A stretch of DNA of 64,000 bases from Patescibacteria group bacterium (lineage in GTDB: Bacteria; Patescibacteriota; Patescibacteriia; Patescibacteriales; GWC2-42-12). The notes beneath the pieces were generated by a model. It was not told where the DNA came from, ran no database searches, and worked only from the letters and a program-made list of their open reading frames with translations. The DNA is taken from positions 6,166-70,165 of the forward strand of contig JBAZRI010000005.1 in the NCBI GenBank assembly GCA_041662965.1. Direction: 5' to 3'. Shown piece after piece: positions 2,150 through 57,894 of the stretch. The position numbers and the translations under genes are program-made. Each line of letters opens with the position of its first letter. The stretch's first letter is position 1.

Positions 2150-3205
2150 TTATTTAATCGCGTAATTTTTCGCCGCGAATTCGTATTGATCAATAAATAT
2201 TTTTTTAAACGGCAAAATTGAATTTAATTCGTAAAACGCCAGCATGGCTTCGCGGTATTCAACCTCATCAACACTGCGGTACGAAAGAGGCGCGCGATGA
2301 TGCGCCAGCAATATCGCGTTGGCCATTAAACGGGCGGTTCTTTTGTTGCCGTCTTCAAACGGCTGAATATAACCGATGCCTAATAGGGCGATTAGCGCTT
2401 TAGCGTAAGGCGATGGCATTTTTATTATGGCGGCGCTAAGGCTATCAACGGCTTCGCTGATTTGATGAAAATTATCAAGCGGCTGGTAAATTGAGCCGAT
2501 TACGCCGACTGGTTTTTGGCGCAAGCCTAAGCCGACATTTAAATTTTTAATCAAAATAGCCTGCAGTTCCTCAAGATTTTTTCTCGTCAGAGTGGAAAAT
2601 CGCGGCGTGTTTTCACGGATAAAGCTAAAAGCGTCTTTATGATTTAAAATCATCCGCGCTTCCTGCTTATTATGTCCGGGCGCCTCTTTATTTTCCAAAA
2701 TTAATTTTTCCGTATCTAAAAGCGTGTAAGTATTGCCTTCAATTTTTGATGACTTCCATGATAGCTCAATGATAAGCCGCTCTAACTCTTTTTTTTGAAT
2801 GGCCGGCGGTAAATTTTCCGTTCTCTCTTGGTATTGAGCGGTTGCCTTATCCAGCCGCTCTAACTCTTTAGCCGTGAAAATATCGGCCGGCAAATCAGGC
2901 AATAAATTAAAATTATAGCCTTTAAATCCATATCGCTTATCGGGTTCAGCCAAACAATACTCGCGAGCATCAATAGGCGCTAAAACCCTGCCCAAAACGC
3001 TTATTTTATATTGCGTAGCCGGTCCGGAACCGGAAACAACCAAAAGGCCCAGCTTAACCATTTGAGATAGGGCGCGTTTTATGGTAATTAAAGAAGTTTT
3101 GTCGCCAGGCTTAGACGCTTCAGTGTGAACGTCGGAAGACGACATAGCGCCTCCCTTAAGAACTATAAGCAATATTTGCTGATGTTTTTTGTTTAATTCA
3201 ATCAT
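2150..3205 (-). CDS. Fic family protein with N-terminal winged-helix-like domain
   Basis: Fic motif HPFEDGNKRTAR. SxxxEG motif (SSKIEG). 351 aa. Confidence 0.9.
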   Translation of the reverse strand: MIELNKKHQQILLIVLKGGAMSSSDVHTEASKPGDKTSLITIKRALSQMVKLGLLVVSGSGPATQYKISVLGRVLAPIDAREYCLAEPDKRYGFKGYNFNLLPDLPADIFTAKELERLDKATAQYQERTENLPPAIQKKELERLIIELSWKSSKIEGNTYTLLDTEKLILENKEAPGHNKQEARMILNHKDAFSFIRENTPRFSTLTRKNLEELQAILIKNLNVGLGLRQKPVGVIGSIYQPLDNFHQISEAVDSLSAAIIKMPSPYAKALIALLGIGYIQPFEDGNKRTARLMANAILLAHHRAPLSYRSVDEVEYREAMLAFYELNSILPFKKIFIDQYEFAAKNYAIK

Positions 3206-6117: not shown

Positions 6118-7242
6118 CTAAAGCTTATCCTTTTTAATCAAGCCTTTAACTTCTCTTATCATATTAAGATAAAACTCAAGATTATTCAAGCTGGCCAGCC
6201 TTAAAGCCAAAGGTTCGCCGATTTTAAATAAATAATTTAAATAAGCTTTTGAATAGCGGCGCAGCTCTCCTAGCTCGCTGAATTCGTTAATCGGGGAAAA
6301 GTCTTTGGCGAATCTGGCGTTGGTGATGTTTATAGTTTGGTAAAAATTATTTTTATCGGCTGTTTTTCCCCGGGAAAAAAGCCGGCCGTGCCGGCCTTCT
6401 CTGGTCGGGATAACGCAGTCAAACATATCATAGCCCATTTTAACCGACCTGATAATATCTTCGGGCAAGCCGATGCCTAAGCCGAAGCGCAATTTATTTT
6501 CCGGAATCTGCTCGGCCGTGCATTTTAAGGCCTCGGTTAAAAAGTTTCCGGCTTCGTCAATATGGCGAGCGCCGAAGCCAAAGCCGTCAAAACCGATTTT
6601 AATAAGTTCTCGCGCGCAATGCTCTCTTAATTTTAAATTATTGCCGCCCTGGATAACCGCGAAGAGCAATGGTCTTTTATTATTTTTAAGCAACTTAACT
6701 TGCTTATCATATTCGCGCTTGCATCTTTTCGCCCATTTAATCGTGCGCGAAACCGAGTCGGCTAGCCCGGCGTCATTAAAGCCATTGGGCGGGCAATCAT
6801 CAAAGCAAACCATCATATCAGCGCCTAAGGCAAATTGGATTTTTATGGATAGCTCCGGAGTTATGGTTAATTTAGCCCCGTCTAAAGGAGAATTAAAAAT
6901 CGCGCCTTGATCATTAACCGAACCGCGCGCGCCGCTTTTATGGATCAGGGAAAAAACCTGATACCCCCCGCTATCGGTTAAAATCGGCTTAGGCCAATCC
7001 ATAAAATTATGCAGGCCCTTGGCCCGTTTAATCAGTTTAATTCCCGGCCGCAGATATAAATGCAAAGTATTGGCCACCAGGCACTCTAAGCCCAGCCCGG
7101 CGAGTTCGGCGGCGCTTAAATGCTTGATCACTCCCCTGGTGGCGTCAGGCATAAAAACCGGCGTTTCTAATCGGCCGTGCGGGGTGGTTATTAAGCCCAA
7201 ACGGGCGTTAGAAATTTTAGATTTTTTAGTTATTTTAAACAT
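6118..7242 (-). CDS. tgt: tRNA-guanine transglycosylase (queuine tRNA-ribosyltransferase) homolog
   Basis: ARLGLITTPHGRLETPVFMPDAT, TDSGGYQVFSL, MFDCVIPTREGRHGRLF. The zinc-ligand motif appears to be replaced (see findings). Confidence 0.9.
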   Translation of the reverse strand: MFKITKKSKISNARLGLITTPHGRLETPVFMPDATRGVIKHLSAAELAGLGLECLVANTLHLYLRPGIKLIKRAKGLHNFMDWPKPILTDSGGYQVFSLIHKSGARGSVNDQGAIFNSPLDGAKLTITPELSIKIQFALGADMMVCFDDCPPNGFNDAGLADSVSRTIKWAKRCKREYDKQVKLLKNNKRPLLFAVIQGGNNLKLREHCARELIKIGFDGFGFGARHIDEAGNFLTEALKCTAEQIPENKLRFGLGIGLPEDIIRSVKMGYDMFDCVIPTREGRHGRLFSRGKTADKNNFYQTINITNARFAKDFSPINEFSELGELRRYSKAYLNYLFKIGEPLALRLASLNNLEFYLNMIREVKGLIKKDKL

Positions 7243-9578: not shown

Positions 9579-12350
9579 TTATTTTTCCTCAACGATTATG
9601 CCGATTATTTTATCCTGATTTAAATCTTCGGTGATTAACCAGCCGTCCGCGCCGCCGCCTAAATCAACCGGATATTTCCAGATTGGCGCGAAGCCGCCGC
9701 CTAATTTTAATTCGCTGGTTATGGTGGATGAATTCATGCCCGGCTGTTTTTGCACTAACAGCGAATATGAATATAAATTTTTCTGTTCCGGATTTAAAAC
9801 CGCGCCGGCCTTGGTGATAAGCTGATCCGCGAAATTATCTCCGGCCGGCTCCGGCTTAGCGGTTAATTTAAAAGGCAGTTTATATTTTATATTTATTTCA
9901 ACGGTTTCCCCCGGGTCAAGCTGGGACCAGTTGGCGAAGACGGTTTTATTGAATTCATTATAAATTTTCGTGCCGGTGGCTTCGTCCGTTCGCGCCTGGC
10001 TTTCGGCGGCGAAAACTTCGGGATCATTTTCCAGGCCGGCCATTTCTTTATCAAAAAATATTTTATCCACCGGCTTAAAGCCGCTAACTTCCAATAATTC
10101 CGAGCCGAGCGGCACGTAAACTCTTAGCCAATTAACGTTTCTCACTCCGGAAAAAGGCTCGCGCTTAATCGCTTCATGAACGCGCCTAATAGTTAAATTA
10201 TTAATAATTGACCCGTCCGGCTGAATTTCGCTTTGCTGGATAATTTCCTGCTTGATTTTACGGTCGCTTTTTCCGCCGGCGATGTTAGTATTGATAACAT
10301 TTAAATAATCGCCGGCCGTATCTTTAATCCGGCCGCTCCAGCCCAAGTCATCGGCTTTAGCCTGTAAAGCTTCATCCGTAAAATAAAATAAAATATTTTT
10401 GCCGGCGAGCGACTCTTCAATCGCCTTAAATAACGGCCCTAAATTATCCTTAGTCAGCCGCTTAGGCAATTCTTCAATAATTTTATTCATTAAATCACCG
10501 ATGATTTTTTTCGGCTCTCTGGTTACGTCCGGTTTTTGCTCGGCCAGTTTTTGCGTTTCCATAAAGAAATTATCCGCGCCGATAGTTAAGCCGTATTTTT
10601 CTTGCAAATCCACCGGGCCGATTATGGCTAACAATTTTTCCATCACGGTTGGCGTAAAGCTAATAACGCCGTCAACGGTTGAACCGTCGGAATTTTCATA
10701 AAACCAAGCGAGCTTTTCCGCGCTGGTCGGCCAATCCGGCCACCAATTCGCGTCCCAAAAATGCCAATCGGCCCTAACCAGACTTAAAGGCTCCGGCGCT
10801 TTTATTTTTTTTAAAAAACCGGCATCAGTATCGTAGCTGCCGCCGCCCGGAACTTCAATATTTTTTATCTCGCCTTTGGAAAAATCTATTAAAGCAAAAC
10901 TGCCGATAAAGCCGCCCGAAGCGCGCAGTTCCGAGTTATTTTGAAAGACTAATAGATAGCGCTTAGCCGCGCTGGCGCCTAAAAAATTTCCGAGGCTATC
11001 GGCTAAACTGATAAATTCTTTTAAGCCGCGGCTAAGCTGGCCGGCTTTTTGTTTTAATAAAATAAATTCTGTTTGGTAATTTTCCGGTATAACCTCGCTG
11101 TTTATCTGGTCTAAGGTTTTATTTAATTCGCTTAAATCGGTTATGGCGTTATTTCCGTAAAAACTTAAATTCTTTAAAATGTTATTAACGTTATCGGCCC
11201 GGTAGCTAAACAGGCTCTCCATAGCCAAGCTTAAATTTTTTCCCGCGGCCGCGCTTAGCTCGCCGGCGCGCAAAATATTTTTGCCGGCGGCGGCCAGGCG
11301 CATATTTTTATCAGGCAAAACCGAAGCTAAAGCGAAAAGCAAACCGTTGATTTCTTTTAGCTCGTTTTGCGCGCTTAAAAAATTATCGCCGGCGCTTTTA
11401 AAGCCTTGGCCGGCTTGGTTAAAATTAAAATTCGCGGCCGATTGCCCGGCGGAAATTAAATTGCCAATGGCGCTCTCGCTGGCGCCTAAAACCTTGCCGC
11501 GAACCACGTTGATAACTTTATAATAGGTAAAAGCTTTAACCGGTAAAATTATGATAAATAATATTCCGGCGAAAATTAAAACCGGCTTTAAGTAGCCAAC
11601 TAACCGCCTGTCATTGCGAGGAGCGATAGCGACGAAGCAATCTCTTTCTTCGCCAACAGATTTCTTTTCCGCCGCCGCGAGCGACCGCAGGGAGCGAAGC
11701 AATCTCGCGAAGATTGAAACAGCCGCTAGCTGCTTAGCCTGAAGGTCTTGAGGTATATTTTTAATAACTTTATTTACTGCCGGGTGAAATTTAATAAATA
11801 ACAGATAACCCGCTTTTTTAATCGGCTTAATTATGGCTAAAAGCAAAAAGTAAGCCAGCCTTAAAATAAAGACGATTGTCCAGCCGGCCGCGTAGCAAAT
11901 TTTATAAAGCAGCCAATAAACTTTTTTTAGAATAAAATACAGCGCCTTGCCTAAAACGATAAGCGCCAGCTGATTAGATAAAACAACCAAGTAACTGTCA
12001 TTGCGAGCGACCGCAGGGAGCGCGGCAATCTTATTCTTTCTCTTTTTGTCATTGCGAGCTGGCTTTTCCTTTGTCATTCCCGCGAAGGCGGGAATCCAGA
12101 AATTACGGCTGCGAACCATTAAGGCTATAATATTCTTTTTGGCATTTTCACTCCCCGCCTTTAGTATTCCCTTGTAATCCACTTCCGCCAATTTTTCCAG
12201 CTTTTCTTCAAGACGTCCGACGTCTCCAAGACGTCGGACGTCTTTTGCTTTGGTTTCTTCTTTAGGCAGATTCTGCTTTAAATCAATAACAAAACGGGAC
12301 GATTTCACATCCGGGTTAACTTTTAAATTATGGGGATTATTTAAAGCCAT
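9579..12350 (-). CDS. DUF4012 domain protein (paralog 1) with repeat-derived N-terminal extension
   Basis: LLVFQNNSELRASGGFIGSFALIDFSKGEI and WHFWDANWWPDWP parallel the second paralog at 30561..32555. The N-terminal ~250 aa carries in-frame repeat modules. Confidence 0.8.
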   Translation of the reverse strand: MALNNPHNLKVNPDVKSSRFVIDLKQNLPKEETKAKDVRRLGDVGRLEEKLEKLAEVDYKGILKAGSENAKKNIIALMVRSRNFWIPAFAGMTKEKPARNDKKRKNKIAALPAVARNDSYLVVLSNQLALIVLGKALYFILKKVYWLLYKICYAAGWTIVFILRLAYFLLLAIIKPIKKAGYLLFIKFHPAVNKVIKNIPQDLQAKQLAAVSIFARLLRSLRSLAAAEKKSVGEERDCFVAIAPRNDRRLVGYLKPVLIFAGILFIIILPVKAFTYYKVINVVRGKVLGASESAIGNLISAGQSAANFNFNQAGQGFKSAGDNFLSAQNELKEINGLLFALASVLPDKNMRLAAAGKNILRAGELSAAAGKNLSLAMESLFSYRADNVNNILKNLSFYGNNAITDLSELNKTLDQINSEVIPENYQTEFILLKQKAGQLSRGLKEFISLADSLGNFLGASAAKRYLLVFQNNSELRASGGFIGSFALIDFSKGEIKNIEVPGGGSYDTDAGFLKKIKAPEPLSLVRADWHFWDANWWPDWPTSAEKLAWFYENSDGSTVDGVISFTPTVMEKLLAIIGPVDLQEKYGLTIGADNFFMETQKLAEQKPDVTREPKKIIGDLMNKIIEELPKRLTKDNLGPLFKAIEESLAGKNILFYFTDEALQAKADDLGWSGRIKDTAGDYLNVINTNIAGGKSDRKIKQEIIQQSEIQPDGSIINNLTIRRVHEAIKREPFSGVRNVNWLRVYVPLGSELLEVSGFKPVDKIFFDKEMAGLENDPEVFAAESQARTDEATGTKIYNEFNKTVFANWSQLDPGETVEINIKYKLPFKLTAKPEPAGDNFADQLITKAGAVLNPEQKNLYSYSLLVQKQPGMNSSTITSELKLGGGFAPIWKYPVDLGGGADGWLITEDLNQDKIIGIIVEEK
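11610..11709. repeat. Family-1 modules inside the DUF4012 CDS
   Basis: gtcattgcgaggagcgatagcgacgaagcaatctc and gcgagcgaccgcagggagcgaagcaatctcgcg, read in frame as ...CFVAIAPRND... and ...LRSLRSLAAA... Confidence 0.9.
11997..12099. repeat. Family-1 modules inside the DUF4012 CDS
   Basis: gtcattgcgagcgaccgcagggagcgcggcaatct, gtcattgcgagc, gtcattcccgcgaaggcgggaatccag, read in frame as ...PAFAGMTKEKPARNDKK...AALPAVARND... Confidence 0.9.
12211..12243. repeat. Tandem 15-nt palindromes agacgtcSgacgtct (each with two GACGTC cores) inside the CDS
   Basis: agacgtccgacgtct (12211..12225) and agacgtcggacgtct (12229..12243). A third copy lies at 39251..39265. Confidence 0.9.
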
Positions 12351-12526: not shown

Positions 12527-13126
12527 CTACGCCACCGGTAAGAAACCGACGGAGAATCTTCTGCCTGACTCAATTATTTGAGTGGAAGGCAATGAGTTTA
12601 CAATGAATTTGCCAACGTCAAAAAACTGATTAACCGCCAATTTTACGTTTGATTTAATTTTGGTGGATCCATCCACCGCCTGTGCGCGGAGATAGGATAT
12701 CTTGCCTTTTTTTGTTTCCTTGTTTTTGAGCTCTATTAAAGCCGTTACTTCACTACCAGCTTTTTCTTTCTCCGCCCCAAAAACATAGACTGGTATAAAT
12801 CCTCCTTTGACACTTTTCCGGCATTCCCAGTACGGCTCTATGCCTTGGCCAGGCTGATTGTATTTGGCATCTCGGTCAATGCGTAAATTCGCCAAAACCG
12901 GCTCCCAGATATTCTCTCTGGCTATTCCACCTGCATTTGCTACATTATTGCCGATTCTGGCTTCGTCCGCCGTCTTGACAATACTATCTACTGCTTTTGT
13001 CGCCTCAAAACCGATAACCTCAAAACAATTCCTACAAGTCCTTGCTTTATCTGATTTGTTTTTACCGCAAACCGGACAACCCTTGCCCGACGCCAGAACT
13101 TCCGCCAACAATATAATCGTATTCAT
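12527..13126 (-). CDS. Hypothetical protein with N-terminal CxxC...CxxC zinc ribbon (SD-led island gene)
   Basis: 199 aa. CPVCGKNKSDKARTCRNC. Strong SD GGAGGG 6 nt upstream of the ATG. No family recognised. Confidence 0.65.
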   Translation of the reverse strand: MNTIILLAEVLASGKGCPVCGKNKSDKARTCRNCFEVIGFEATKAVDSIVKTADEARIGNNVANAGGIARENIWEPVLANLRIDRDAKYNQPGQGIEPYWECRKSVKGGFIPVYVFGAEKEKAGSEVTALIELKNKETKKGKISYLRAQAVDGSTKIKSNVKLAVNQFFDVGKFIVNSLPSTQIIESGRRFSVGFLPVA

Positions 13127-15886: not shown

Positions 15887-16007
15887 GTCATTGCGGGCTT
15901 GACCCGCAATCCAGGTTAAATCCGTAATAAATTTGCGATTAAAATATACTTTCAGAAACAACACCTGTGCTTTCTATTCTGGATTCCGGCTCGGAGGCCG
16001 GAATGAC
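15887..16007. repeat. Composite repeat: module C forward (15887..15914) and module D reverse (15979..16007)
   Basis: gtcattgcgggcttgacccgcaatccag ... ctggattccggctcggaggccggaatgac. Module D lies inside the 3' end of CDS 15939..17747. Confidence 0.9.
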
Positions 16008-17747: not shown

Positions 17748-17770
17748 ATATTTTTTTACATTGTTTCTAC

Positions 17771-17869
17771 TGTCATTGCGAGGAGCTTCAGCGACGAAGC
17801 AATCTCACGTACTCGGAATTTAACCAGAGATTGCTTCGTCGCCCCGAGTACGGGGCTTCTCGCAATGAC
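17771..17869. repeat. Inverted pair of family-1 units
   Basis: gtcattgcgag-gagcttcag-cgacgaagcaatctc ... gagattgcttcgtcg-ccccgagtacggggctt-ctcgcaatgac. Confidence 0.9.
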
Positions 17870-21975: not shown

Positions 21976-22149
21976 TGTCATTGCGAGAAGTGAATGAAGC
22001 GGAGCGTAATGAGCGACGAAGCAATCTCTGGTTTAATGGCGTGTGCGTGGATTTTTACCAGAGATTGCTTCGTCGCTGAAGCTCCTCGCAATGACAAATT
22101 AAATTTAAATTTAAAAAATGCACAAACCTGCCTACCGGCAGGCAGGTTT
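21976..22149. repeat. Inverted pair of family-1 units plus a cctgcc...ggcagg hairpin module
   Basis: gtcattgcgag...cgacgaagcaatctctgg / ccagagattgcttcgtcgctgaagctcctcgcaatgac; aaacctgcctaccggcaggcaggttt (22124..22149). Confidence 0.9.
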
Positions 22150-23832: not shown

Positions 23833-24501
23833 CTAATTGACCAGCATGGCGATAAACAAATCTTTTAGAATTTTCAGGCCGCCGGAAAAACTTTGCCCGA
23901 AATTATGGTAAATGACTTTAATGGGTATTTCTTTAACTTTAAAATTATTCTTTTTTACTTCAAACATTATCTCCGAGCAATGCGCCATCCGATCCTGCTT
24001 CCAGCTGATTCTACGCGCCGCCTCGGCCGACATCGCTCTGAAACCGCTTTGCGGGTCAGTCAAATTTACATTAAAAAATACTTTATTAACCGCTTTAGCC
24101 AAAGGCATAATAAAATATTTTTTGAAAAAAGGCATGCCTAAGCTGTGCTCGGCGTTAAGAAAGCGCGAACCGAAAACAACTTGCGCTCTGCCGTCTTTAA
24201 TCGGCGCCGCGATGCGTTCTATATCTTGGCTTAAAAACTGGCCATCGGCGTCAAAATGGACGATTATATCGGCGCCATTGTTTAAGCAATACTTAGTTCC
24301 GGTTCTTAAGGCCGCGCCTTGCCCGCGGTTTATTATATGCTTAAGCAAAACCGCGCCGGCCCGCGCGGCTAAATCAGCCGTCCGATCGCTTGAGCCGTCG
24401 TCAACAATCACTAGCCTATCAACCAGCGGACGTACCTGGTTAATTATTGTTATTATGTTTTTTTCTTCATTGAACGCCGGAATGACACAAAAAATCTTCA
24501 T
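23833..24501 (-). CDS. Glycosyltransferase family 2 (polyprenol-phosphate sugar transferase-like)
   Basis: VIPAFNEEKNI, IVDDGSSDRT, FDADGQ. Confidence 0.85.
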   Translation of the reverse strand: MKIFCVIPAFNEEKNIITIINQVRPLVDRLVIVDDGSSDRTADLAARAGAVLLKHIINRGQGAALRTGTKYCLNNGADIIVHFDADGQFLSQDIERIAAPIKDGRAQVVFGSRFLNAEHSLGMPFFKKYFIMPLAKAVNKVFFNVNLTDPQSGFRAMSAEAARRISWKQDRMAHCSEIMFEVKKNNFKVKEIPIKVIYHNFGQSFSGGLKILKDLFIAMLVN

Positions 24502-24525
24502 AAATAATTATATTAGCACCTCATG

Positions 24526-24624
24526 TTTGGGCTAAATTTATAAAATTTTCGTGCGAGGACTGTTTGAGCCCAAGTAATCTTGGGTGAGTTCCGAGAGGAG
24601 AAAATTTTATAAATTTAGCCCAAA
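24526..24624. repeat. Rod-like hairpin element, family 2, copy 1
   Basis: Perfect 25-bp arms tttgggctaaatttataaaattttc / gaaaattttataaatttagcccaaa. Cores gtgcgaggactgtttgag and gagttccgagaggag. Apical hairpin cccaag-taat-cttggg. Confidence 0.9.
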
Positions 24625-25690: not shown

Positions 25691-27919
25691 TTACTTATTG
25701 ATTTTTATACTGCCTACGCTTACTCCGCCGCCGAAACTTTCTTCATAAGCATAAAACGAGCCAACGATTCTGCCATCAGCTTTAAAAACGCGGACATGAG
25801 GCGCTCCGCCCGGACCGGCGGCGGTTATAATTTCATCCAAGCCGTCATTATCTACGTCGGCTTTAGCTAAATTCACGCCGCCGCGGAAATTACTGTTAAA
25901 GGCGAAAAAATGCGATAATAAATTTCCTTTGCCGTCAAAAAATTTAATATGCGGCCCGCCGTTTTTTTCCGGCGCGGTAATAATATCCGCTCGATTGCCC
26001 CTTGAGCCGCTTCTAACGCTGGCGATCGTGACTTTAACGCCGCCGCGGAAAGTTTTAGGGTAGGCCAAAAATTGCCCTTGTAAAATGCCGCCGGCTTTAA
26101 AGATTCTAACTTCGGGAATTTTTCCGGCCGCCAAACCGGTCACTATTTCATCTTCGCCGTCGCCGTCTATGTCGCCGGTAGCGATATTAAGCCCGCCTTT
26201 AAACTTATTATCATAAGCGTAAAATGAGCCTAGCACCTGGCCGCGGCCGTTAAAAATTTTTATTTCCGAATTTCCGCCCGTAGCTTGCGCGGCGATAATT
26301 TCATCACTGCCGTCATTGTTAACGTCGGCAGCGGCAATGTTAACGCCGCCGCGGAAATTACTGTTAAAAGCAAAGAATTGGCCGATCGGCTCTCCTTTCA
26401 GGTTAAAAATCCTGATATGCGGCCCGCCGCCAAGCCCGGCCGCGGTAATAATTTCCTGTTGGCCGTCATGATTTATGTCCCCGGAAGCAAAATTAACGCC
26501 GCCTTTAAAATTATTGGCGTAGGCGTAAAACTCGCTATCTTTTTTGCCGTCTTGATCGGTAATTTTTATAAGGCTGGCCAGGCCGTTTTTCGGCCCAATC
26601 AGCAATTTTTCAATTTTATTATTTAACAGGCTCTGCGCGTAATTAACCGCGGCCGCGATATTCAGCCTGCCTTTGCCAAGCTGGCCTAAATATTTCGGAT
26701 TTAACCGACTGATATTATCCGTATTATCCAATAGCGTTTTTATAATCTGGTCTCGGTTTAAAGCCGGGTTAGCGCTGGCTATTAAAGCCAACGCGCCGCT
26801 TACCATGGGCACGGCGACCGAGGTACCGGACCAATAACCGTCATAATATTTATTAAACGGCTGGCCATTTAAGTAATTATCAGGCGAATAAACCACTGTG
26901 CTGAAAACACTGACCCCGGGCGCGGCAATATCAATGCATTTATTGCCAAAACTGGAAAAAGCCGCTTTCTGGTCTAAAGTATCGGTTGCGGCTACGCCGA
27001 TTACTCGGTTCTCGCCGTTAGCGCCATCAAGGCAAACCGGATACATGGGAGTTTGATCCAAATAATAGCCATCTCCCTGGCCGACTTCATTGCCTCCGGC
27101 AGCCACCACGATTATTCCGGCGTTATAAGCGCGTTTTATGGCGTCATCAAGGCCTTGGCTGTAGCCAAAGCCGACAAAACTTAGATTTATAATATTAGCG
27201 CCGTTGGCGACCGCGTAATCAACCGCCTTGATAACTTTAGAAGCGCTGCCTTCGCCTTTGTCATCCAAAACTTTAAGCGGCATAATTTTCGCTTTCCAGG
27301 TTATGCCGGCTATGCCGGCGGCGTTATTGCCGGAAGCCGCGGCTATACCGGCGATAATCGTGCCGTGCAATATTCCGTCTTCGCTAAAATCCGGCTTAAA
27401 CTTTGGCGACGGATCAGGCACATTATTGACAAAATCCCAGCCGTTAACATCATCAATAAAACCGTTTCTGTCATCATCAATATTGTTATCGGCGATTTCT
27501 TTTTTATTAAGCCAGATATTGCTTCTTAAATCGGGATGGCTGATTTGCACTCCTGAATCTAAAATGGCGATGACAATCTCGGGGCTTTCCCTTTTATTGT
27601 CCCAAGTTTCAATGGCTTTAACTTTTTGCAGATACCATTGATTATTGAAATAAGTATCAGACGGTATTATGGCGGCTTGATAAAGATAATTCGGCTCGGC
27701 ATATTCCACTTCCGGCAAACCGCTATAATAATTTAAAAAATTATTAAAATCGCCTGCTTGAGCAATTTTAATGGCTATCGGTTCGGTTGAAGCTTTAAAT
27801 TTCACCAATATTTCATCAGCGACAAAATTATTTTGGATAGCGCCAAAAGCATTATGGCCGGTGAATATAATCAGCCCAAATAAAAATATAATAAAAAAAG
27901 ATGTTATATTCTTTTTCAT
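25691..27919 (-). CDS. Secreted S8 (subtilisin-family) serine peptidase with C-terminal FG-GAP/VCBS-like repeats
   Basis: Catalytic triad contexts AILDSGV, HGTIIAG and SGTSVAVP. Repeated DxNxDGxxEII...GGPHIRIF units. Start moved to MKKNITSFF (signal peptide-like). Confidence 0.85.
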   Translation of the reverse strand: MKKNITSFFIIFLFGLIIFTGHNAFGAIQNNFVADEILVKFKASTEPIAIKIAQAGDFNNFLNYYSGLPEVEYAEPNYLYQAAIIPSDTYFNNQWYLQKVKAIETWDNKRESPEIVIAILDSGVQISHPDLRSNIWLNKKEIADNNIDDDRNGFIDDVNGWDFVNNVPDPSPKFKPDFSEDGILHGTIIAGIAAASGNNAAGIAGITWKAKIMPLKVLDDKGEGSASKVIKAVDYAVANGANIINLSFVGFGYSQGLDDAIKRAYNAGIIVVAAGGNEVGQGDGYYLDQTPMYPVCLDGANGENRVIGVAATDTLDQKAAFSSFGNKCIDIAAPGVSVFSTVVYSPDNYLNGQPFNKYYDGYWSGTSVAVPMVSGALALIASANPALNRDQIIKTLLDNTDNISRLNPKYLGQLGKGRLNIAAAVNYAQSLLNNKIEKLLIGPKNGLASLIKITDQDGKKDSEFYAYANNFKGGVNFASGDINHDGQQEIITAAGLGGGPHIRIFNLKGEPIGQFFAFNSNFRGGVNIAAADVNNDGSDEIIAAQATGGNSEIKIFNGRGQVLGSFYAYDNKFKGGLNIATGDIDGDGEDEIVTGLAAGKIPEVRIFKAGGILQGQFLAYPKTFRGGVKVTIASVRSGSRGNRADIITAPEKNGGPHIKFFDGKGNLLSHFFAFNSNFRGGVNLAKADVDNDGLDEIITAAGPGGAPHVRVFKADGRIVGSFYAYEESFGGGVSVGSIKINK

Positions 27920-27960
27920 AACATCTTTATTATAACATAAGTTGCCGGTATTTTTCAAAT

Positions 27961-29229
27961 CTAAATTTTTTCCAAAAGCGCCAATGTTTCCCGGGCGCAT
28001 TTAGCCAGGCTAAAGTCTTTTACTCTGATAAAACCGTTAGAGATTAATTGATCGGCCAATTCTCTGTCCAATAATATTTTCGCCATTTTTTGCGCCATAT
28101 CATCCTTATCCCCCGGGTTGAAAAGCAAAGCTGAATCTTTAACAACTTCCCTTATGGAAGCGATATTGGAAGCCGCGACCGGCGTGCCGCAAACCATGGC
28201 CTGGAGCAAAGGTATGCCAAACCCTTCATAGAGCGAAGGAAAAACAAATAAAGCGGCGCCGTTATAAATATAAGGCATATCGGCTTCCGGCACCCAGCCG
28301 GTCATAATTACGTTATCTTCAAGATCATATTCGTTTATGACATATTTAATTTCATCATAGCCGGAGTCGGCTCTGCCTACTAAAACCAACTTAGGCTTTA
28401 TCTGGCTGAATTTTTGCCTCATGATGGCATAAGCGCCGACCAGATTAGCGGTATTTTTCTTTTTTTCCAAGCGGCCGGCATAAAAAATATAAGGGGCTTT
28501 AATGTCATATTTATTTAAAACTTGTTTTATTTTTTCCGCGTCCTGAATCGGGCGATAAAGCGCGCCGTTAAAGCCGTTATAAACCACTTTAATTTTTTCC
28601 GCGTCAGCTTGATAAAATTCCACCATTTCTTTTTTAGTAAATTCAGACACCGCGATAATTGTTTTGGCGTGCTTGAGCGCGAATTTCGTTGACCAGCTAT
28701 GATAATCAATAACATTTGAATGAAACTTGCCTAAAGTAAACAACCTGACTAAAAAATTGAAAACTCCGGAAATTAAGCCGCTGGCCGGGCCGATTTTATC
28801 CGAACTGTAAAGTTTGGCCTGGCGCTCAAAACCTATGTCATGGATAGTAACGATTGATTTTTTCGGATGAATAACCGGCAGAGTGTGAGCCGGTATGAAA
28901 AGTACGTCTGCCCGATGCATTAACATTTCATAAGACAAGCGAATTTGCGTCCAAAAAAAAGTAAAAGGCCAGTTTAAAATTTTAACGCGGAAATTACAAT
29001 TTGGACTTTTAATTTCTTGCCAGCCGTAGCCGTCTATTTTACCCGGCTTAGCCGAATAATTTTCATCGGTTAAATCAGCTAAGCCGCCGGTTAAAGGCTT
29101 ATCACTATATAAAATATATTGATTTTTTGAATCAATTTTAGCCAGCTCTCTTATCAAATAATAAGAATACCACTCCGTACCGCCTTTAAATTTTCTATTC
29201 GCCCTTGAGGCGTCAATGCCGATAAGCAT
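27961..29229 (-). CDS. Glycosyltransferase family 4
   Basis: EGFGIPLLQAMVCGTPVAASN. Confidence 0.85.
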   Translation of the reverse strand: MLIGIDASRANRKFKGGTEWYSYYLIRELAKIDSKNQYILYSDKPLTGGLADLTDENYSAKPGKIDGYGWQEIKSPNCNFRVKILNWPFTFFWTQIRLSYEMLMHRADVLFIPAHTLPVIHPKKSIVTIHDIGFERQAKLYSSDKIGPASGLISGVFNFLVRLFTLGKFHSNVIDYHSWSTKFALKHAKTIIAVSEFTKKEMVEFYQADAEKIKVVYNGFNGALYRPIQDAEKIKQVLNKYDIKAPYIFYAGRLEKKKNTANLVGAYAIMRQKFSQIKPKLVLVGRADSGYDEIKYVINEYDLEDNVIMTGWVPEADMPYIYNGAALFVFPSLYEGFGIPLLQAMVCGTPVAASNIASIREVVKDSALLFNPGDKDDMAQKMAKILLDRELADQLISNGFIRVKDFSLAKCARETLALLEKI

Positions 29230-29245
29230 AAAAATTGTATATAAT

Positions 29246-29360
29246 ATTGGGCTAAATTTAGAAAATTTTCGTGCGAGGACTGCCTGCCTGCCGGCAGGCA
29301 GGTTTGAGGAGCTTTAAGCGACGAGTTCCGCAGTAGAAAATTTACTAAATTTAGCCCAAT
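29246..29360. repeat. Rod-like hairpin element, family 2, copy 2 (carries an extra inserted GC hairpin)
   Basis: attgggctaaatttagaaaattttc...gaaaatttactaaatttagcccaat. Core gtgcgaggactg followed by inserted cctgcctgccggcaggcagg, then tttgag...gagttccgcagtag. Confidence 0.9.
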
Positions 29361-30398: not shown

Positions 30399-30551
30399 GT
30401 CATTGCGAGAAGCCTGTAATCAGGCGACGAAGCAATCTCTTCCTTATTGTCATTCCCGCGAAAGCGGGAATCCAGGTTTAAACGCTATAAACAAGTTTCT
30501 GGATTGCGGGTCAAGCCCGCAATGACGAAGTAAATTTCGCTCGCAATGACA
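30399..30551. repeat. Repeat cluster: family-1 unit, composite B-spacer-C element, terminal aatgac
   Basis: gtcattgcgag-aagcctgtaatcagg-cgacgaagcaatctc; gtcattcccgcgaaagcgggaatccag (30449..30475), a 23-nt spacer, then ctggattgcgggtcaagcccgcaatgac (30499..30526). Confidence 0.9.
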
Positions 30552-35302: not shown

Positions 35303-35403
35303 ATTGGCTTTAGCTTTTGTAAAATTTTCGTGCGAGGACTGTTTGAGGCCGAGTAATCTCGGCCGAGTTCCGCAGTAGAAAATTTACAAAAACTAAAGCC
35401 AAT
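35303..35403. repeat. Rod-like hairpin element, family 2, copy 3
   Basis: Different but complementary arms attggctttagcttttgtaaaatttt / aaaatttacaaaaactaaagccaat. Same cores. Apical hairpin gccgag-taat-ctcggc. Confidence 0.9.
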
Positions 35404-40171: not shown

Positions 40172-40873
40172 CTACTTTCCCAAATAATATTTTCTCTTTT
40201 TCTCGCTTAATTTTTCAATCGCGTATCTTAGCATAGTGCGGGGCATGGCCTTATAATGCTTGTCCAAAAAACCAATCAATACCGCCTGGTCCCGCTTGCC
40301 CGCTTCTCTAAGCATCCAGCCAGCGGCTTTATGGATTAAATCATGCTGGTCATTTAATAATCTTTCGGCGATTTTCAAGGTGTCACCGAATTCCTTGTTT
40401 CTGATAGAAGCGAAAGTGGAAATCATGGCGATTCGCCTCTCCCATAAATTTTTTGAACCGGCCAGCTGATATAAAATTCGCCTCGGCTTGTCCAGTAAAT
40501 AATCGCCTAAAATATAATGGCAGGACAAATCCACTAAATCCCAGTTATTGACATTTTCGGTATTTCTTAAATAAAAATCTACAAATTTTTTCTTAGCGCC
40601 GGATTCGGCTTTTTTATATTGGCCGATTAAAATTAGTAAAGCGCTTAAGCGATGCTCATGAATTTTACTGTTTAAAAGTTTCTGCAAATCATTAAAATTC
40701 AGGCTTGGATATTTTTTAGCCGCAATTCTTTGCGCCGGCACTTTTATGCCTAAAAAAATATCCCCGGCCCCGTACTCGCCCGGGCCGGTTTTAAAAAACT
40801 TTTGCAAATTTTCCGCCTGCTTTTTATTTGCCAGTTTATTTAATTCATTTTTCAGTTGTTTTAAATTTTCCAT
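40172..40873 (-). CDS. DNA alkylation repair protein (AlkD-like HEAT-repeat glycosylase family)
   Basis: NLQKFFKTGPGEYGAGDIFLGIKVPAQR, WDLVD and HKAAGWMLRE are typical of this family (from memory). Start moved to MENLKQL. Confidence 0.7.
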   Translation of the reverse strand: MENLKQLKNELNKLANKKQAENLQKFFKTGPGEYGAGDIFLGIKVPAQRIAAKKYPSLNFNDLQKLLNSKIHEHRLSALLILIGQYKKAESGAKKKFVDFYLRNTENVNNWDLVDLSCHYILGDYLLDKPRRILYQLAGSKNLWERRIAMISTFASIRNKEFGDTLKIAERLLNDQHDLIHKAAGWMLREAGKRDQAVLIGFLDKHYKAMPRTMLRYAIEKLSEKKRKYYLGK

Positions 40874-40894
40874 AATTAAATTATAGCATAAAAT

Positions 40895-40920
40895 GAAAAA
40901 GGCCAAATTTCTTTGGCCTT
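40895..40920 (-). terminator. Intrinsic terminator
   Basis: Minus strand AAGGCCAAA-GAAA-TTTGGCCTT followed by TTTCATTTT, 22 nt after the stop at 40943. Confidence 0.75.
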
Positions 40921-40942
40921 ATCTGACTTGGAGATAATATTT

Positions 40943-41107
40943 TTACTCCTTGCTTTTTTTCGCTTTCTTTTGGCATCTGGGGCATAAAGGCCCTGCCTTT
41001 GTTTTTATCCAACCTGATTTCTGAAAGTCGTCTGGCTTCATCAATTCTTTCTTGGCTCTACACCCAGTTCCCTAGCTAGGACCGGGACCTGAACAATAGA
41101 ATATCAT
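40943..41107 (-). pseudogene. Small Cys-rich ORF interrupted by one in-frame TAG (codon 12)
   Basis: ATG overlaps the upstream TGA (ATGA), with AAGGAGG 7 nt upstream. MIFYCSGPGPS*GTGCRAKKELMKPDDFQKSGWIKTKAGPLCPRCQKKAKKSKE*. TAG at 41072..41074. Confidence 0.4.
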
Positions 41108-41328
41108 TTTAACCTCCTTCTTTTAAGATCAGCCGAAACTTTTTTTCTTAATTTCTTAGCGTAGCCCGCTGTAGTAACTAAAATCTCGGCCAAAGTCGCG
41201 TCTGAAGCCAAAACTGGCTTGTTTTTTGTATCCACCGGCGGAGTCGGTAAATCACGGCAATCTTGCCAGGGAGGAAACACTTTATTCCTCCACCCTTCTG
41301 CTTTCGCTACATCAACTGATATCGTCAT
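41104..41328 (-). CDS. Small hypothetical protein (SD-led)
   Basis: 74 aa. GGAGGA 7 nt upstream of the ATG. No family recognised. Confidence 0.55.
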   Translation of the reverse strand: MTISVDVAKAEGWRNKVFPPWQDCRDLPTPPVDTKNKPVLASDATLAEILVTTAGYAKKLRKKVSADLKRRRLK

Positions 41329-41355
41329 TTCTCATTCCTCCTTATACCTTTTTTA

Positions 41356-42148: not shown

Positions 42149-42247
42149 CGTGTAAAGATGTTTGTTTTGAGCGCATACGAAATTGTAAAGATTTTTCTAA
42201 AAAATCGCCCAAATTTCGTCTAAGCGAAAAACAAACATCTTTACACG
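42149..42247. repeat. Rod-like hairpin element, family 3, copy 1 (between the ABC ATPase and permease genes)
   Basis: Perfect arms cgtgtaaagatgtttgtttt / aaaacaaacatctttacacg. Cores gagcgcatacgaaattgta and cccaaatttcgtctaagc. Confidence 0.9.
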
Positions 42248-43361: not shown

Positions 43362-43841
43362 TTACGCACCTCCTATTTCATGGTCAGTTTCGTTATTTTT
43401 TCCCAAAATTTTTATAACTTCTTCAAAAATATTTTTAGCATCTCCCCTGGCCCAAAACTTATCAGCCGAAATTCCTTTTTTAAGAGCATCGCGTGCGCAA
43501 TTAATATTGGCTAGAAGGGTAGCCGCTTTTTCTTCCGCGTTTTTGCGGCCGTCGACAGCTTCCGCTTTTTCACACAATAAAATTTCAACCAGGTCGGTTA
43601 ATTTCAAAATGTCTCTATTTACCGCCGACAACTGCGACTCAAGATCTTTTATTTTTTCGCCGGCCTTTTGCAATCCTTCACAGGTTTCTACCAACTTTTC
43701 TTCGGTCTGCGCCAGCTTTTCATTGCCTTCCGAAATTTTTCCATGCAGATAATCAACTTGCGTAATTCCGGCTTTTATTTTACCCTCCGCGATCGTGGCG
43801 GCCGTTTTGGCGTTGGCGACAATTGAACTGATTTTTTCCAT
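43362..43841 (-). CDS. Hypothetical coiled-coil protein (SD-led island gene)
   Basis: 159 aa. AAGGAG 8 nt upstream. Heptad-like EKLAQTEEKLVETCEGLQKAGEKIKDLESQL. Confidence 0.6.
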   Translation of the reverse strand: MEKISSIVANAKTAATIAEGKIKAGITQVDYLHGKISEGNEKLAQTEEKLVETCEGLQKAGEKIKDLESQLSAVNRDILKLTDLVEILLCEKAEAVDGRKNAEEKAATLLANINCARDALKKGISADKFWARGDAKNIFEEVIKILGKNNETDHEIGGA

Positions 43842-43882: not shown

Positions 43883-44176
43883 TTATGATATTTTCAATTT
43901 GGCTACTTCTTCCAGTATCCCCCTAACTGCTGGCATGAGTAAAAATTTCTCCTCATATCCCGGGATTAACTTCTCTGTCGGGGTTACCGGCGCTTTTTCA
44001 ATAACTTTAGCAAGCATCTCACGGCATAGTTCTATTGAAGCCCCGCCTTCCAGTCCAGGATAACAATCGTCTATGGCTTTTAGCGCGGCGTTCAGAGTAA
44101 ACCCCTCTTCGCCAAAAATCTTTTTAAGCATGCCCGCGACATTTAATAAAAGTGTCAACTTCTCTAGCTCATCCAT
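43883..44176 (-). CDS. Hypothetical protein (SD-led island gene)
   Basis: 97 aa. GGGAGGGG 7 nt upstream of the ATG. Confidence 0.6.
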   Translation of the reverse strand: MDELEKLTLLLNVAGMLKKIFGEEGFTLNAALKAIDDCYPGLEGGASIELCREMLAKVIEKAPVTPTEKLIPGYEEKFLLMPAVRGILEEVAKLKIS

Positions 44177-55326: not shown

Positions 55327-55479
55327 TTACTCCTCATCCCCCTCTTCGTTTTCAGGGCGCGAGTGCCGTGCTTGGTTAAATGCTTCTACAAATGGGACGG
55401 TACAAACAGTAATTAAAAAAACTGCCGCAATATATTCCCAGATACCTGTTCTGCTTAAAAAATTCATAATTGCTTCCAT
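55327..55479 (-). CDS. 50-aa single-TM peptide, SD-led, immediately downstream of cysS
   Basis: MEAIMNFLSRTGIWEYIAAVFLITVCTVPFVEAFNQARHSRPENEEGDEE*. AGGAGG starts 3 nt after the cysS stop. Confidence 0.5.
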   Translation of the reverse strand: MEAIMNFLSRTGIWEYIAAVFLITVCTVPFVEAFNQARHSRPENEEGDEE

Positions 55480-55493
55480 GAGCACTCCTCCTT

Positions 55494-56933
55494 TTATTTT
55501 TTCGTAATTCTTTGTCCGTTTTTAGTATCTTCAATATTATAGCCTAATTTTTCAATTTGCCAGCGCAGTTTATCCGATTCTTCAAAATTTTTATCTTGCC
55601 TGGCTTTTTCTCTGGCTCTGATTATTTTCTCAATTTCAACCGGAACTTTTTCTTCTTTTAACGCGCCGGCCAAGCCCAACCCTAAAACTTTATCAAAATC
55701 TAAAATCGTCGCTAATTTTTCCTCGTCTTTAATCTCTGACTTTAAAACTTCTTGGATTATAGCTAGCGCTTGCGGCGTATTTAAATCATCGTTAATCGCC
55801 CGCGAAAACTTTTCTTTAAAATTAGAATTTATACTTGCTACTTTATACTTTATACTTTTAACTTTTAACTCTTTTAGCTGATTATATAAATGTTTTAATC
55901 CTTCCGTTGCCGCCCCTAGCGCCTCCCAGCTAAAATTCATTACTTTGCCATAGCCGGTTTGTAAACATAAAAATCTAAAGGCTAAAGGGCTGATTTTCTT
56001 TTCTGCCAAATCTTTAAGCGTATAAAAATTATTAAACCGTTTGCTCATCTTTTTTCCATCCACTAACAAATATTCATTATGCAGCCAATAATTTACCGGC
56101 CTTTTGCATTTATATCCGATGACGCTTTGGTGTATTTCATTTTCATGATGAGGAAATTTTAAATCAACGCCGCCGGTGTGAATGTCAAAAGGCATGCCTA
56201 ACTCGGCCTGGCCCATGGCCGAGCATTCAATATGCCAGCCGGGCCGACCGGGTAATTTTTGCCCGTCAAGCTCAAACTGCCATGACGGCTCCCCTTGTTT
56301 TTGCCCTTTCCATAAAACAAAATCTTGAACATTGTCTTTTTCATATTCATCGCTGTCTATCCTAGCGCCTGATTTTAATTTTGAGACGTCAATATCAACT
56401 AATAAGCCGTATTTGTGTTTCTGGCTGTATTTAACTACGTCAAAATAAACCGAACCGTCTTTTATGTAAGCTAAGCCGGATTTAAAAATTTTCGCGACTA
56501 ACTCCTGCATTTTTTCAATATATTCAGTCGCTCGAGTTATTTTAATCTGCTGTTTTTCAATATTTAATTTTTCCAAATCCTGCCAAAAATAATTTTCAAA
56601 TTCAGCCGTAAATTTTTTTAAAGCTTGCATCGGGGGCATGTCCGGATATTTTATTTTTGAATCCCTGATGGTTTTATCGTCAACGTCGGTAATATTCATA
56701 ACCCATTTAACTTTTTTTTCGCCAAAATTATATTTTAAAACTCTATTTAAAATATCGGCAAAAACATAAGCCCTTAAATTGCCGACATGGGCGTAATTAT
56801 AAACCGTGGGCCCGCAAGTATATAATCCGACTGCCCCCTGTCCTTTATAAGGAGAGGGTCGGGGTGAGGTTTTAATCGGCTTGAATTCCTCTCTTTTGCG
56901 GCTAAGCGTATTGTATAAAAATAGTTTATTCAT
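55494..56933 (-). CDS. cysS: Cysteine--tRNA ligase
   Basis: YTCGPTVYNYAHVGNLR (HIGH-type), KMSKRF (KMSKS). Carries a ~10-aa repeat-derived insertion after FKPI. Confidence 0.95.
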   Translation of the reverse strand: MNKLFLYNTLSRKREEFKPIKTSPRPSPYKGQGAVGLYTCGPTVYNYAHVGNLRAYVFADILNRVLKYNFGEKKVKWVMNITDVDDKTIRDSKIKYPDMPPMQALKKFTAEFENYFWQDLEKLNIEKQQIKITRATEYIEKMQELVAKIFKSGLAYIKDGSVYFDVVKYSQKHKYGLLVDIDVSKLKSGARIDSDEYEKDNVQDFVLWKGQKQGEPSWQFELDGQKLPGRPGWHIECSAMGQAELGMPFDIHTGGVDLKFPHHENEIHQSVIGYKCKRPVNYWLHNEYLLVDGKKMSKRFNNFYTLKDLAEKKISPLAFRFLCLQTGYGKVMNFSWEALGAATEGLKHLYNQLKELKVKSIKYKVASINSNFKEKFSRAINDDLNTPQALAIIQEVLKSEIKDEEKLATILDFDKVLGLGLAGALKEEKVPVEIEKIIRAREKARQDKNFEESDKLRWQIEKLGYNIEDTKNGQRITKK

Positions 56934-57102: not shown

Positions 57103-57561
57103 TTATTTTTCAATATACTCCACATTCGTAACTTCATTATACTCCGGTATTTTTGCCTCGGGCACGGAGTGGACTTTAAAGGTTGCTAACTCCTCTGCCC
57201 TTTTTAGTAAAAAATTCGGTAAAAACCCGACATATATCGGACTGTTCGGATCTTTATCATATACCGACAAGATACTTGGCTCATCGGCGCCTTTTAAATA
57301 ATATGCTCGATCAAATTTATAAGTTGTTCCCGGCTTTAATTCATTGAAGGGCACCAATTTGCCAAATTTATTATTTTGGCTAATTAATATCCCTGCTATA
57401 AAAGCCCCGGCCGCCGCACAGATGGTTGGAAAAAAAATTAAGAAGGGATTAATAGTTTCTGATGCCGAATTAACTAAAATTGACATCAATACTATACCAA
57501 TAGCCATAAGAATCGGAACTGCTAAACATAATATCTTTACCCCACCGGATAATTTTATCAT
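57103..57561 (-). CDS. Hypothetical membrane protein (2 TM plus soluble domain), SD-led
   Basis: 152 aa. GGAGG 5 nt upstream of the ATG. Confidence 0.6.
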   Translation of the reverse strand: MIKLSGGVKILCLAVPILMAIGIVLMSILVNSASETINPFLIFFPTICAAAGAFIAGILISQNNKFGKLVPFNELKPGTTYKFDRAYYLKGADEPSILSVYDKDPNSPIYVGFLPNFLLKRAEELATFKVHSVPEAKIPEYNEVTNVEYIEK

Positions 57562-57708
57562 TCTTTCCTCCTTTTTTGCCTTATCGGCGTTTTTATGTTT
57601 ATAATAGCTTGTTATTTAAAAAGACCGCGCATTACTTTTCACAATTTCGCCCGCAGTTAGTATTACGTACGGGCAAAAAGTAAAAATTAATATGTTGTTA
57701 TATTATTG

Positions 57709-57849
57709 ATTGGGCTAAATTTATGAAATTTTCGTGAGATTACTGCAGTTAGGCTTGGAAAAATTGTTTTTATCGCGCATACGAAATTGTAGCGACCGCA
57801 GGGAGCCCAAATTTCGTCTAAGCAAAAAAAACAATTTTTCCAAGCCTAA
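57709..57849. repeat. Nested repeats: degenerate family-2 left half, then a full family-3 element with a family-1 module at its apex
   Basis: attgggctaaatttatgaaattttcgtgagattactgcag, then ttaggcttggaaaaattgttttt...gcgcatacgaaattgta-gcgaccgcagggagc-ccaaatttcgtctaagc...aaaaacaatttttccaagcctaa. Confidence 0.9.
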
Positions 57850-57894
57850 CGTATAACTACAATATTATTTCAATTTTCCTACCGCTTATTTTTG

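Follow-up and report, generated by a model that had tools for sequence, protein, structure and literature searches.

The stretch of Patescibacteria DNA analysed here (the window, 64 kb, in which all coordinates are given) carries the locus on its minus strand, on which its features were read directly and where the genes follow one another in the order ABC ATPase, ABC-2 permease, orf74, a segment of about 200 nt, an intrinsic terminator, an alkylation-repair gene (Pfam DNA_alkylation, 2.6e-63), LexA and Zincin_1. The gene that we call orf74 is a 74-aa ORF (41104..41328) with its own Shine-Dalgarno (SD) sequence, AAGGAGG at 41343..41337, 8 nt before the ATG. A second AAGGAGG (41119..41113) sits within its final codons, which read AAA AGA AGG AGG TTA AAA TGA, the triplets AGA AGG AGG encoding RRR, and lies 5 nt upstream of a second start. 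The stop of orf74 (TGA, 41106..41104) and this ATG (41107..41105) form an ATGA overlap (41104..41107), beyond which eleven codons, MIFYCSGPGPS, lead to an in-frame TAG at 41074..41072 and make up a mini-ORF (41072..41107). A sequence-only reading of this DNA had described the SD-led 74-aa ORF, the overlap and the interrupting TAG, and direct reading confirms all three; the spacer behind the second SD, given there as 7 nt, is 5 nt long.

Past the TAG the frame stays open for 42 codons (GTGC...CPRC...KSKE) and closes with a TAA (40943..41071), so that the whole, hereafter the Cys frame, reads MIFYCSGPGPS-TAG-GTGCRAKKELMKPDDFQKSGWIKTKAGPLCPRCQKKAKKSKE-TAA and ends at 40943. With the TAG counted as position 12, its cysteines are C5, C16, C42 and C45; the first two agree with the earlier assignment and the last two replace C44 and C47. 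The CPRC that contains the second pair is encoded at 40984..40973, and the first pair is a C-x10-C arrangement split by the TAG, which is no CxxC knuckle. The stop codon itself belongs to a perfect palindrome of 10 nt, CCTAGCTAGG (41071..41080), within which, at 41072, lies the only occurrence of CTAGCTAG in the 64 kb; the tetranucleotide CTAG is depleted fourfold in the window (58 sites vs about 230 expected). A 4-nt CTAG duplication was considered as the origin of the stop and rejected, as removal of one CTAG from CCTAGCTAGG gives a frame that stops after 20 codons and so yields no ORF of greater length.

The terminator downstream (40890..40920) consists of AAGGCCAAA-GAAA-TTTGGCCTT and then a T-run. 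It had been reported at 40895..40920 and is indeed present, with a 9-bp stem at 40920..40899 and the T-run behind it. An extended -10 element, TGCTATAAT (40871..40888), ends 6 nt before the alkylation-repair ATG (40873); here the next transcription unit, probably a leaderless one, begins. The element and its 6-nt distance to the ATG are conserved in a related contig (window 40871-40888, minus strand; L001 3428-3448). A TTG start at 40906 for the alkylation-repair gene is almost certainly wrong, because the homologues (MPNLKQLK) match the protein that begins at ATG 40873 (MENLKQLK).

Despite its near-orphan status, orf74 is a convincing gene. Among 5.8 billion clustered proteins it has exactly one homologue (P0002, 59% identity), encoded on the related contig L001, and a profile search added no members to these two, nor were homologues found in viral contigs. 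Between the window and L001, where dS is about 0.7-1.2, the dN/dS of orf74 is 0.29 at a dS of approximately 1.0, compared with 0.04-0.10 for the neighbouring genes, which identifies it as a real, fast-evolving gene. Its codon score (+0.10) falls inside the coding range, and the N-terminal motif DVAKAEGWRNK-FPPW-DCRD-P is strictly conserved between orf74 and its counterpart of 72 aa, orf72. The AlphaFold2 (AF2) model comprises a helix at residues 7-17 and a long helix at 41-73 (mean pLDDT 69), the basic C-terminal helix being predicted with confidence, and has no significant fold match in the PDB. Read-through of the orf74 TGA under code 25 was also considered and rejected: TGA terminates other long genes, and the frame behind it stops after 20 codons.

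The L001 contig is syntenic with the window gene for gene. There, orf72 is followed by about 60 nt and then by a terminator and the same TGCTATAAT promoter. The two sequences align as homologous as far as GATCTTAAAA (41130..41121) and again from the terminator and promoter onwards; the hairpin at the terminator position in L001 differs in sequence from that of the window. No trace of the Cys frame was found in L001 by tblastn. The GTDB representative, L005, is the same species as L001 and likewise does not carry the segment. A further relative, L012, whose permease is 87% identical, has neither orf74 nor the Cys frame: its permease stop and the alkylation-repair ATG are 5 nt apart. On these comparisons the segment of about 200 nt (about 41120..40921), absent from L001/L005 and L012, is specific to this strain lineage. 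Two histories would account for this with an equal number of steps, namely that orf74 came first and the segment later, or that both arrived together and the segment was lost in L001. The sequence-only reading had proposed a comparison with homologues, naming absence of the downstream frame as the outcome that would speak against it, and this is the outcome: since the sole relative with the upstream gene has no downstream frame, a functional reading of the Cys frame fails.

The contents of the spot upstream of the alkylation-repair gene differ among the relatives well beyond this single case. In L006 it is filled by a HicA/HicB-like pair (2349-2985) and in L010 by a MATE-like transporter (1374-2792); L010 and L011 (1-117) carry yet other sequences, and in L012 (2990-3000) it is empty. 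Taken together, the differing contents in L001/L005, L006, L010, L011 and L012 indicate a variable spot, and the site is of general interest as a hotspot of gain and loss for small lineage-specific genes. In L012 the alkylation-repair gene is SD-led, starting 5 nt past the stop of the ABC-2 permease (2980-3003). The record for L005 (CAZGKM010000011.1) is titled 'uncultured Gammaproteobacteria bacterium', which is probably a taxonomic mislabel, because L005 belongs to one species with L001 and the contig is syntenic with the Patescibacteria window; in it, an N-masked run extends over the larger part of the ABC-2 permease and over the opening codons of orf72.

The TAG at 41072..41074 is an ordinary, reproducible terminating stop. 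Three other contigs (L002, L003 and L004), from ENA ERZ27249449, Logan SRR18595301 and Logan SRR6484324, are 100% identical to the window, TAG included, over 6225, 2728 and 1375 bp, respectively. The ERZ27249449 contig is of the MEGAHIT-style k141 type, and at least two runs and two assemblers agree; one of the three contigs may derive from the same sample as the window. All four copies being identical, they hold no population or evolutionary signal, and exact look-ups of neighbouring proteins, as a source of further strain variants, returned the same identical contigs only. In the ENA and Logan contigs no gene is called between orf74 and the alkylation-repair gene.

As for decoding, the 52 large ORFs of the window (orf74 counted) end in TAA in 38 cases, in TAG in nine and in TGA in five. 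Code 11 leaves the long genes uninterrupted, with TGA also acting as a stop. After the nine TAG-terminated genes there are 1-19 open in-frame codons, similar to the genes that end in TAA, and in L006 and L010 the homologues of the alkylation-repair protein have their C-termini at the position of its TAG. UAG is thus not depleted as a terminator, as it would be, along with in-frame UAGs in conserved genes, under an amber-recoded code. The sole tRNA in the 64-kb window is Gln(CUG); neither a tRNA(CUA) nor pyl genes were seen within it. An in-frame UAG in an otherwise open frame is what pyrrolysine or amber-suppressing codes would also present, whereas here UAG ends ordinary genes and the UAG in question is not a conserved one, the frame being without homologues. 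To our knowledge, decoding of this type has not been reported for the phylum. The only recoding reported in Patescibacteria is that of UGA to glycine in the Gracilibacteria/SR1 lineage (2026 review, PMC13293708); this code 25 of Gracilibacteria/Absconditabacteria belongs to the same superphylum and is the sole known stop reassignment there, but it concerns a different codon, and TGA ends five of the 52 large ORFs here.

The coding signal of the Cys frame was assessed with a codon log-odds score for which 50 of the window's genes served as the training set. Over its 54 codons the frame scores -0.21 per codon, below every real in-frame window of 54 codons and typical of non-coding frames. Its codon adaptation index (CAI, synonymous codons only) is 0.463, as opposed to 0.68±0.059 in real windows; all real 53-codon windows and 96% of out-of-frame windows score higher. 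None of the six glycine codons is the favoured GGC and none of the five proline codons the favoured CCG. The low codon scores, together with the CTAG features, indicate that the segment is unlike host coding sequence and represents either never-coding or recently imported DNA. The interrupted open frame as such is unremarkable and does not exceed chance: in resampled sequence the probability of at most one stop in 54 codons is 0.16 and that of no stop in 42 codons is 0.077, and six of 51 real stops in the window (12%) are followed by at least 42 open in-frame codons. The presence of four cysteines in 53 residues with one CxxC is, on a rough estimate, weakly unusual at best.

Extensive searches returned no relative of the Cys frame. 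A word-indexed search of 5.8 billion clustered proteins gave no candidate for the read-through product, and an exhaustive phmmer search of 1.84 billion representatives gave 0 matches at E ≤ 0.001 for the 42 residues past the TAG. Nothing significant was found in Pfam, NCBIfam, PADLOC and PDB sequence searches; tblastn of the frame against plasmids and phages and blastn of the segment against phages produced noise or nothing, and no exact 30-mer of the segment occurs in the viral contigs searched. The treble-clef model zf_Tbcl_Rhp7 of Pfam matches the CPRC-helix part with an E-value of 0.038 and 14 bits, against a cut-off of 27 bits. A match to phrog_8303 over residues 26-50 (E 0.0013; best E 0.012 among 10 shuffled or reversed controls) may be taken as a weak lead rather than as evidence. 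Modelled with AF2 as a single sequence, the 42-mer is predicted to form a β-hairpin and then a helix starting at CPRC (pLDDT 67), and its best Foldseek matches in the PDB are treble-clef domains (LIM, GATA and uS14 folds) with E-values of 2 or more, which are not significant. In resemblance to zinc-ribbon and treble-clef proteins (CxxC...CxxC) there is thus one CPRC (C42-P-R-C45) at the predicted hairpin-helix junction and a Lys-rich tail; unlike in those proteins, where two knuckles of the type CxxC or CxxxxC, or their Cys/His equivalents, supply the four ligands, the first cysteine pair here is C-x10-C with a stop between its members. The proposal that the four cysteines form a zinc-ribbon-like set finds no support in these results. 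Other types of element were also considered for the segment and rejected. No Rfam family comes near threshold and the fold z-score is -1.6, which disposes of an RNA element; with regard to a mobile element or repeat, the window contains no paralogue of the segment, its termini bear neither inverted nor direct repeats, and it belongs to none of the repeat families of the window.

The one feature of the Cys frame that exceeds chance is its SD-ATG start. The pattern AGGAGG-N4-9-ATG occurs at seven sites in the window, where Markov-1 random sequence would give 1.2; the remaining six sites all head open frames of at least 50 codons, while AGGAGG inside genes is rare (five in 54 kb of sense strand). 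This enrichment, with the other six sites opening real frames, fits a former gene start, and the signal argues for what would be a true translation start, present or former. The ATGA overlap requires no more than an A ahead of the TGA stop. As a coupled pair, the two frames do show an overlap with the ribosome-binding site inside the upstream gene, but conservation and selection are seen in orf74 only, its partner being absent in L001/L005. The mini-ORF also has points in common with coupled mini-ORFs and leader peptides, namely 11 codons, a strong SD and the ATGA overlap with the upstream stop. Unlike leader peptides, it comes last in its transcription unit, at the 3' end, with the terminator about 150 nt further on; there is no gene behind it to regulate, the following gene has its own promoter, and the relative does not conserve it.

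Starts of this kind are infrequent in the window, where only about 6-8 of 46 ATG-start genes have an SD core of at least 4 nt. A -10-like hexamer (TAnAAT or TATAnT) ending 0-10 nt before the ATG is present in 14 of the same 46 genes, as against 5.6% of all ATGs; examples are the site at 40871-40888 and the starts of the genes at 6118-7242 and 23833-24501. Rare SDs combined with frequent -10-like hexamers at starts suggest widespread leaderless or SD-independent initiation, and a by-product of general interest is that this genome rarely uses the SD and seems heavily reliant on such starts. The SD-led genes are mostly small hypotheticals (orf74, 43362-43841, 43883-44176, 57103-57561 and 12527-13126). 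A further 50-aa ORF (MEAIMNFLSRTGIWEYIAAVFLITV...) on the minus strand at about 55330-55480, resembling a small membrane protein, begins 7 nt downstream of an AAGGAGG, which itself directly follows the stop of a 479-aa gene (55494-56933).

Our best reading, to which we give about an even chance of being right, is that the TAG is an ordinary stop and that a small foreign gene with its own SD, silenced by a nonsense mutation, left the segment as its dead remnant. Ribosomes that finish orf74 could restart at the overlapping SD-led ATG, and such a restart would yield at most the 11-residue peptide MIFYCSGPGPS, the only part of the Cys frame that is likely to be translated. The 42 codons past the TAG would then be untranslated 3' sequence reaching to the terminator (40920..40899). 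The ancestral gene would have come from outside with a strong SD of its own and without the host-preferred GGC and CCG codons, and would have left the segment of about 200 nt, which is found in this strain lineage alone. We infer that the Cys frame was once a working gene, that it came from outside and that ribosomes do translate the mini-ORF. Besides the start signal, the 42 open codons past the TAG, the CPRC at the beginning of a predicted helix and the weak matches to the treble-clef model and to phrog_8303 speak for a former gene. In common with nonsense-inactivated ORFans and decaying small acquired genes, the Cys frame shows one premature stop in a reading frame that is open elsewhere, an intact ribosome-binding site, codon usage atypical for the host and a patchy distribution (missing in L001/L005 and L012). 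It differs from them in that no intact homologue that has sense in place of the stop turned up among proteins, phage, plasmid and viral contigs or related loci to prove a former gene; Patescibacteria genomes, moreover, are compact and as a rule poor in pseudogenes. The fresh nonsense pseudogene named among the options of the sequence-only reading is therefore viable and is the one we prefer; because no intact homologue exists, we infer it and cannot prove it. Against a gene remnant it also counts that its gene-like features (an open frame with p of about 0.1, four cysteines, one CxxC) are individually weak and were picked post hoc, and that a CAI exceeded by 96% of out-of-frame windows is what never-coding and foreign DNA would equally well show.

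The segment may, alternatively, never have been a gene, which we consider possible though rather unlikely. It would then be lineage-specific non-coding 3' or intergenic DNA in which a 54-codon frame with one stop arose by chance, as it would in any frame with the probability given above, and AAGGAGG would merely encode the Arg-rich tail of orf74 and happen to precede an ATG. The codon score and CAI, typical of non-coding frames or below them, agree with this, as do the failure of every homology search, the lack of a gene call in the ENA and Logan contigs, the hypervariability of the spot among relatives and the gain by this lineage of further small elements between genes, one of them the hairpin element at 42149-42247, which is missing from L001. 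The start signal speaks against it: the SD-ATG pattern is about six times as frequent as in random sequence, all its other instances open an ORF, and AGGAGG is rare within genes; the phrog_8303 match, marginal as it is, is also better than that of the shuffles. Whether the segment is a dead remnant or never was a gene is a difference in history only and not in present function. Given the absence of homologues, the absence of the segment in L001/L005 and L012 and the CAI of 0.463, the Cys frame does not function now.

The readings in which the post-TAG frame is expressed fare worse. That two small proteins are made, one the coupled 11-aa peptide and the other a separate product of 32 or 33 aa, (M)MKPDDFQKSGWIKTKAGPLCPRCQKKAKKSKE, begun independently at TTG 41044 or ATG 41041, is improbable. 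The ORF 40943..41044 does exist, and since most genes here have no SD, a missing one is not decisive. Still, the internal start has neither an SD nor a -10-like hexamer before it, and, being internal to the transcript, it could not use leaderless initiation; the codon score of -0.195 is below 99.6% of real 32-codon windows, zinc binding by a lone CxxC is impossible, the exhaustive search, which spanned the whole stretch, gave no homologues, and the stretch is absent from relatives. The earlier suggestion of a leader peptide plus an ORF from the internal Met is accordingly weak, the ATG at 41041 having no promoter-like context either. Gene-specific read-through of the amber codon, by a near-cognate tRNA, a suppressor tRNA or pyrrolysine, to give a 54-aa, Lys-rich zinc-binding protein with four cysteines, is very improbable, and its fuller form, a lineage-specific Cys4 metal- or nucleic-acid-binding protein with the 11-aa peptide as default product, deserves just as little credence. 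A frame open on both sides of the TAG, the total of four cysteines and the strong start signal favour it. It has against it the regular use of TAG as a stop and the absence of a suppressor tRNA in the window, the lack of homologues in which the stop and the downstream frame could be conserved, a relative without the frame, a C5-x10-C16 spacing that makes no zinc knuckle, codon usage foreign to the host and, among known cases in the phylum, recoding of UGA only. Programmed read-through or suppression, also among the original options, is thus disfavoured. The last of these, an intact 54-aa gene misrepresented through an error of sequencing or assembly, would suit a defect of single-base type and is the least credible of all: the agreement of at least two different runs and two assemblers on the TAG makes an assembly error very unlikely, the identity of three other contigs from different pipelines across this position essentially excludes it, and with a sense codon there the gene would still be an orphan whose codon usage is not that of the host.

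Rather than a case of recoding, the Cys-rich 'gene' is most likely what remains of a dead gene or a frame open by chance. Decoding of the TAG would make this the first instance of gene-specific amber read-through in Patescibacteria, but the evidence points the opposite way; the practical value of the analysis is negative, in that the site should not be annotated as recoded or as a zinc-ribbon gene.

Several other repeats and small elements were observed in the window. Palindromic hairpin elements of about 100 nt at 42149-42247 and 57748-57850 have TTCGCTTAGACGAAATTTGGGCG...CAATTTCGTATGCGC in common and look MITE-like or REP-like; the former fills a 123-nt gap between the ABC ATPase and the ABC-2 permease that is 9 nt long in L001. 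Further short intergenic repeat families, direct and inverted (TGTCATTGCGAGGAGC..GCGACGAAGCAATCTC, GTCATTGCGGGCTTGACCCGCAATCCAG and GGGCTAAATTTATAAAATTTTCGTGCGAGGACTG), are found at 11608-11645, 17770-17811 and 22056-22096, at 15887-15914 and 30499-30526, and at 24524-24593, 29244-29313, 35303-35372 and 57707-57745. A 769-aa gene on the minus strand (25691-28000) contains periodic repeats of 153 nt (51 aa), with at least five units of 60-76% identity (families D1-D3).
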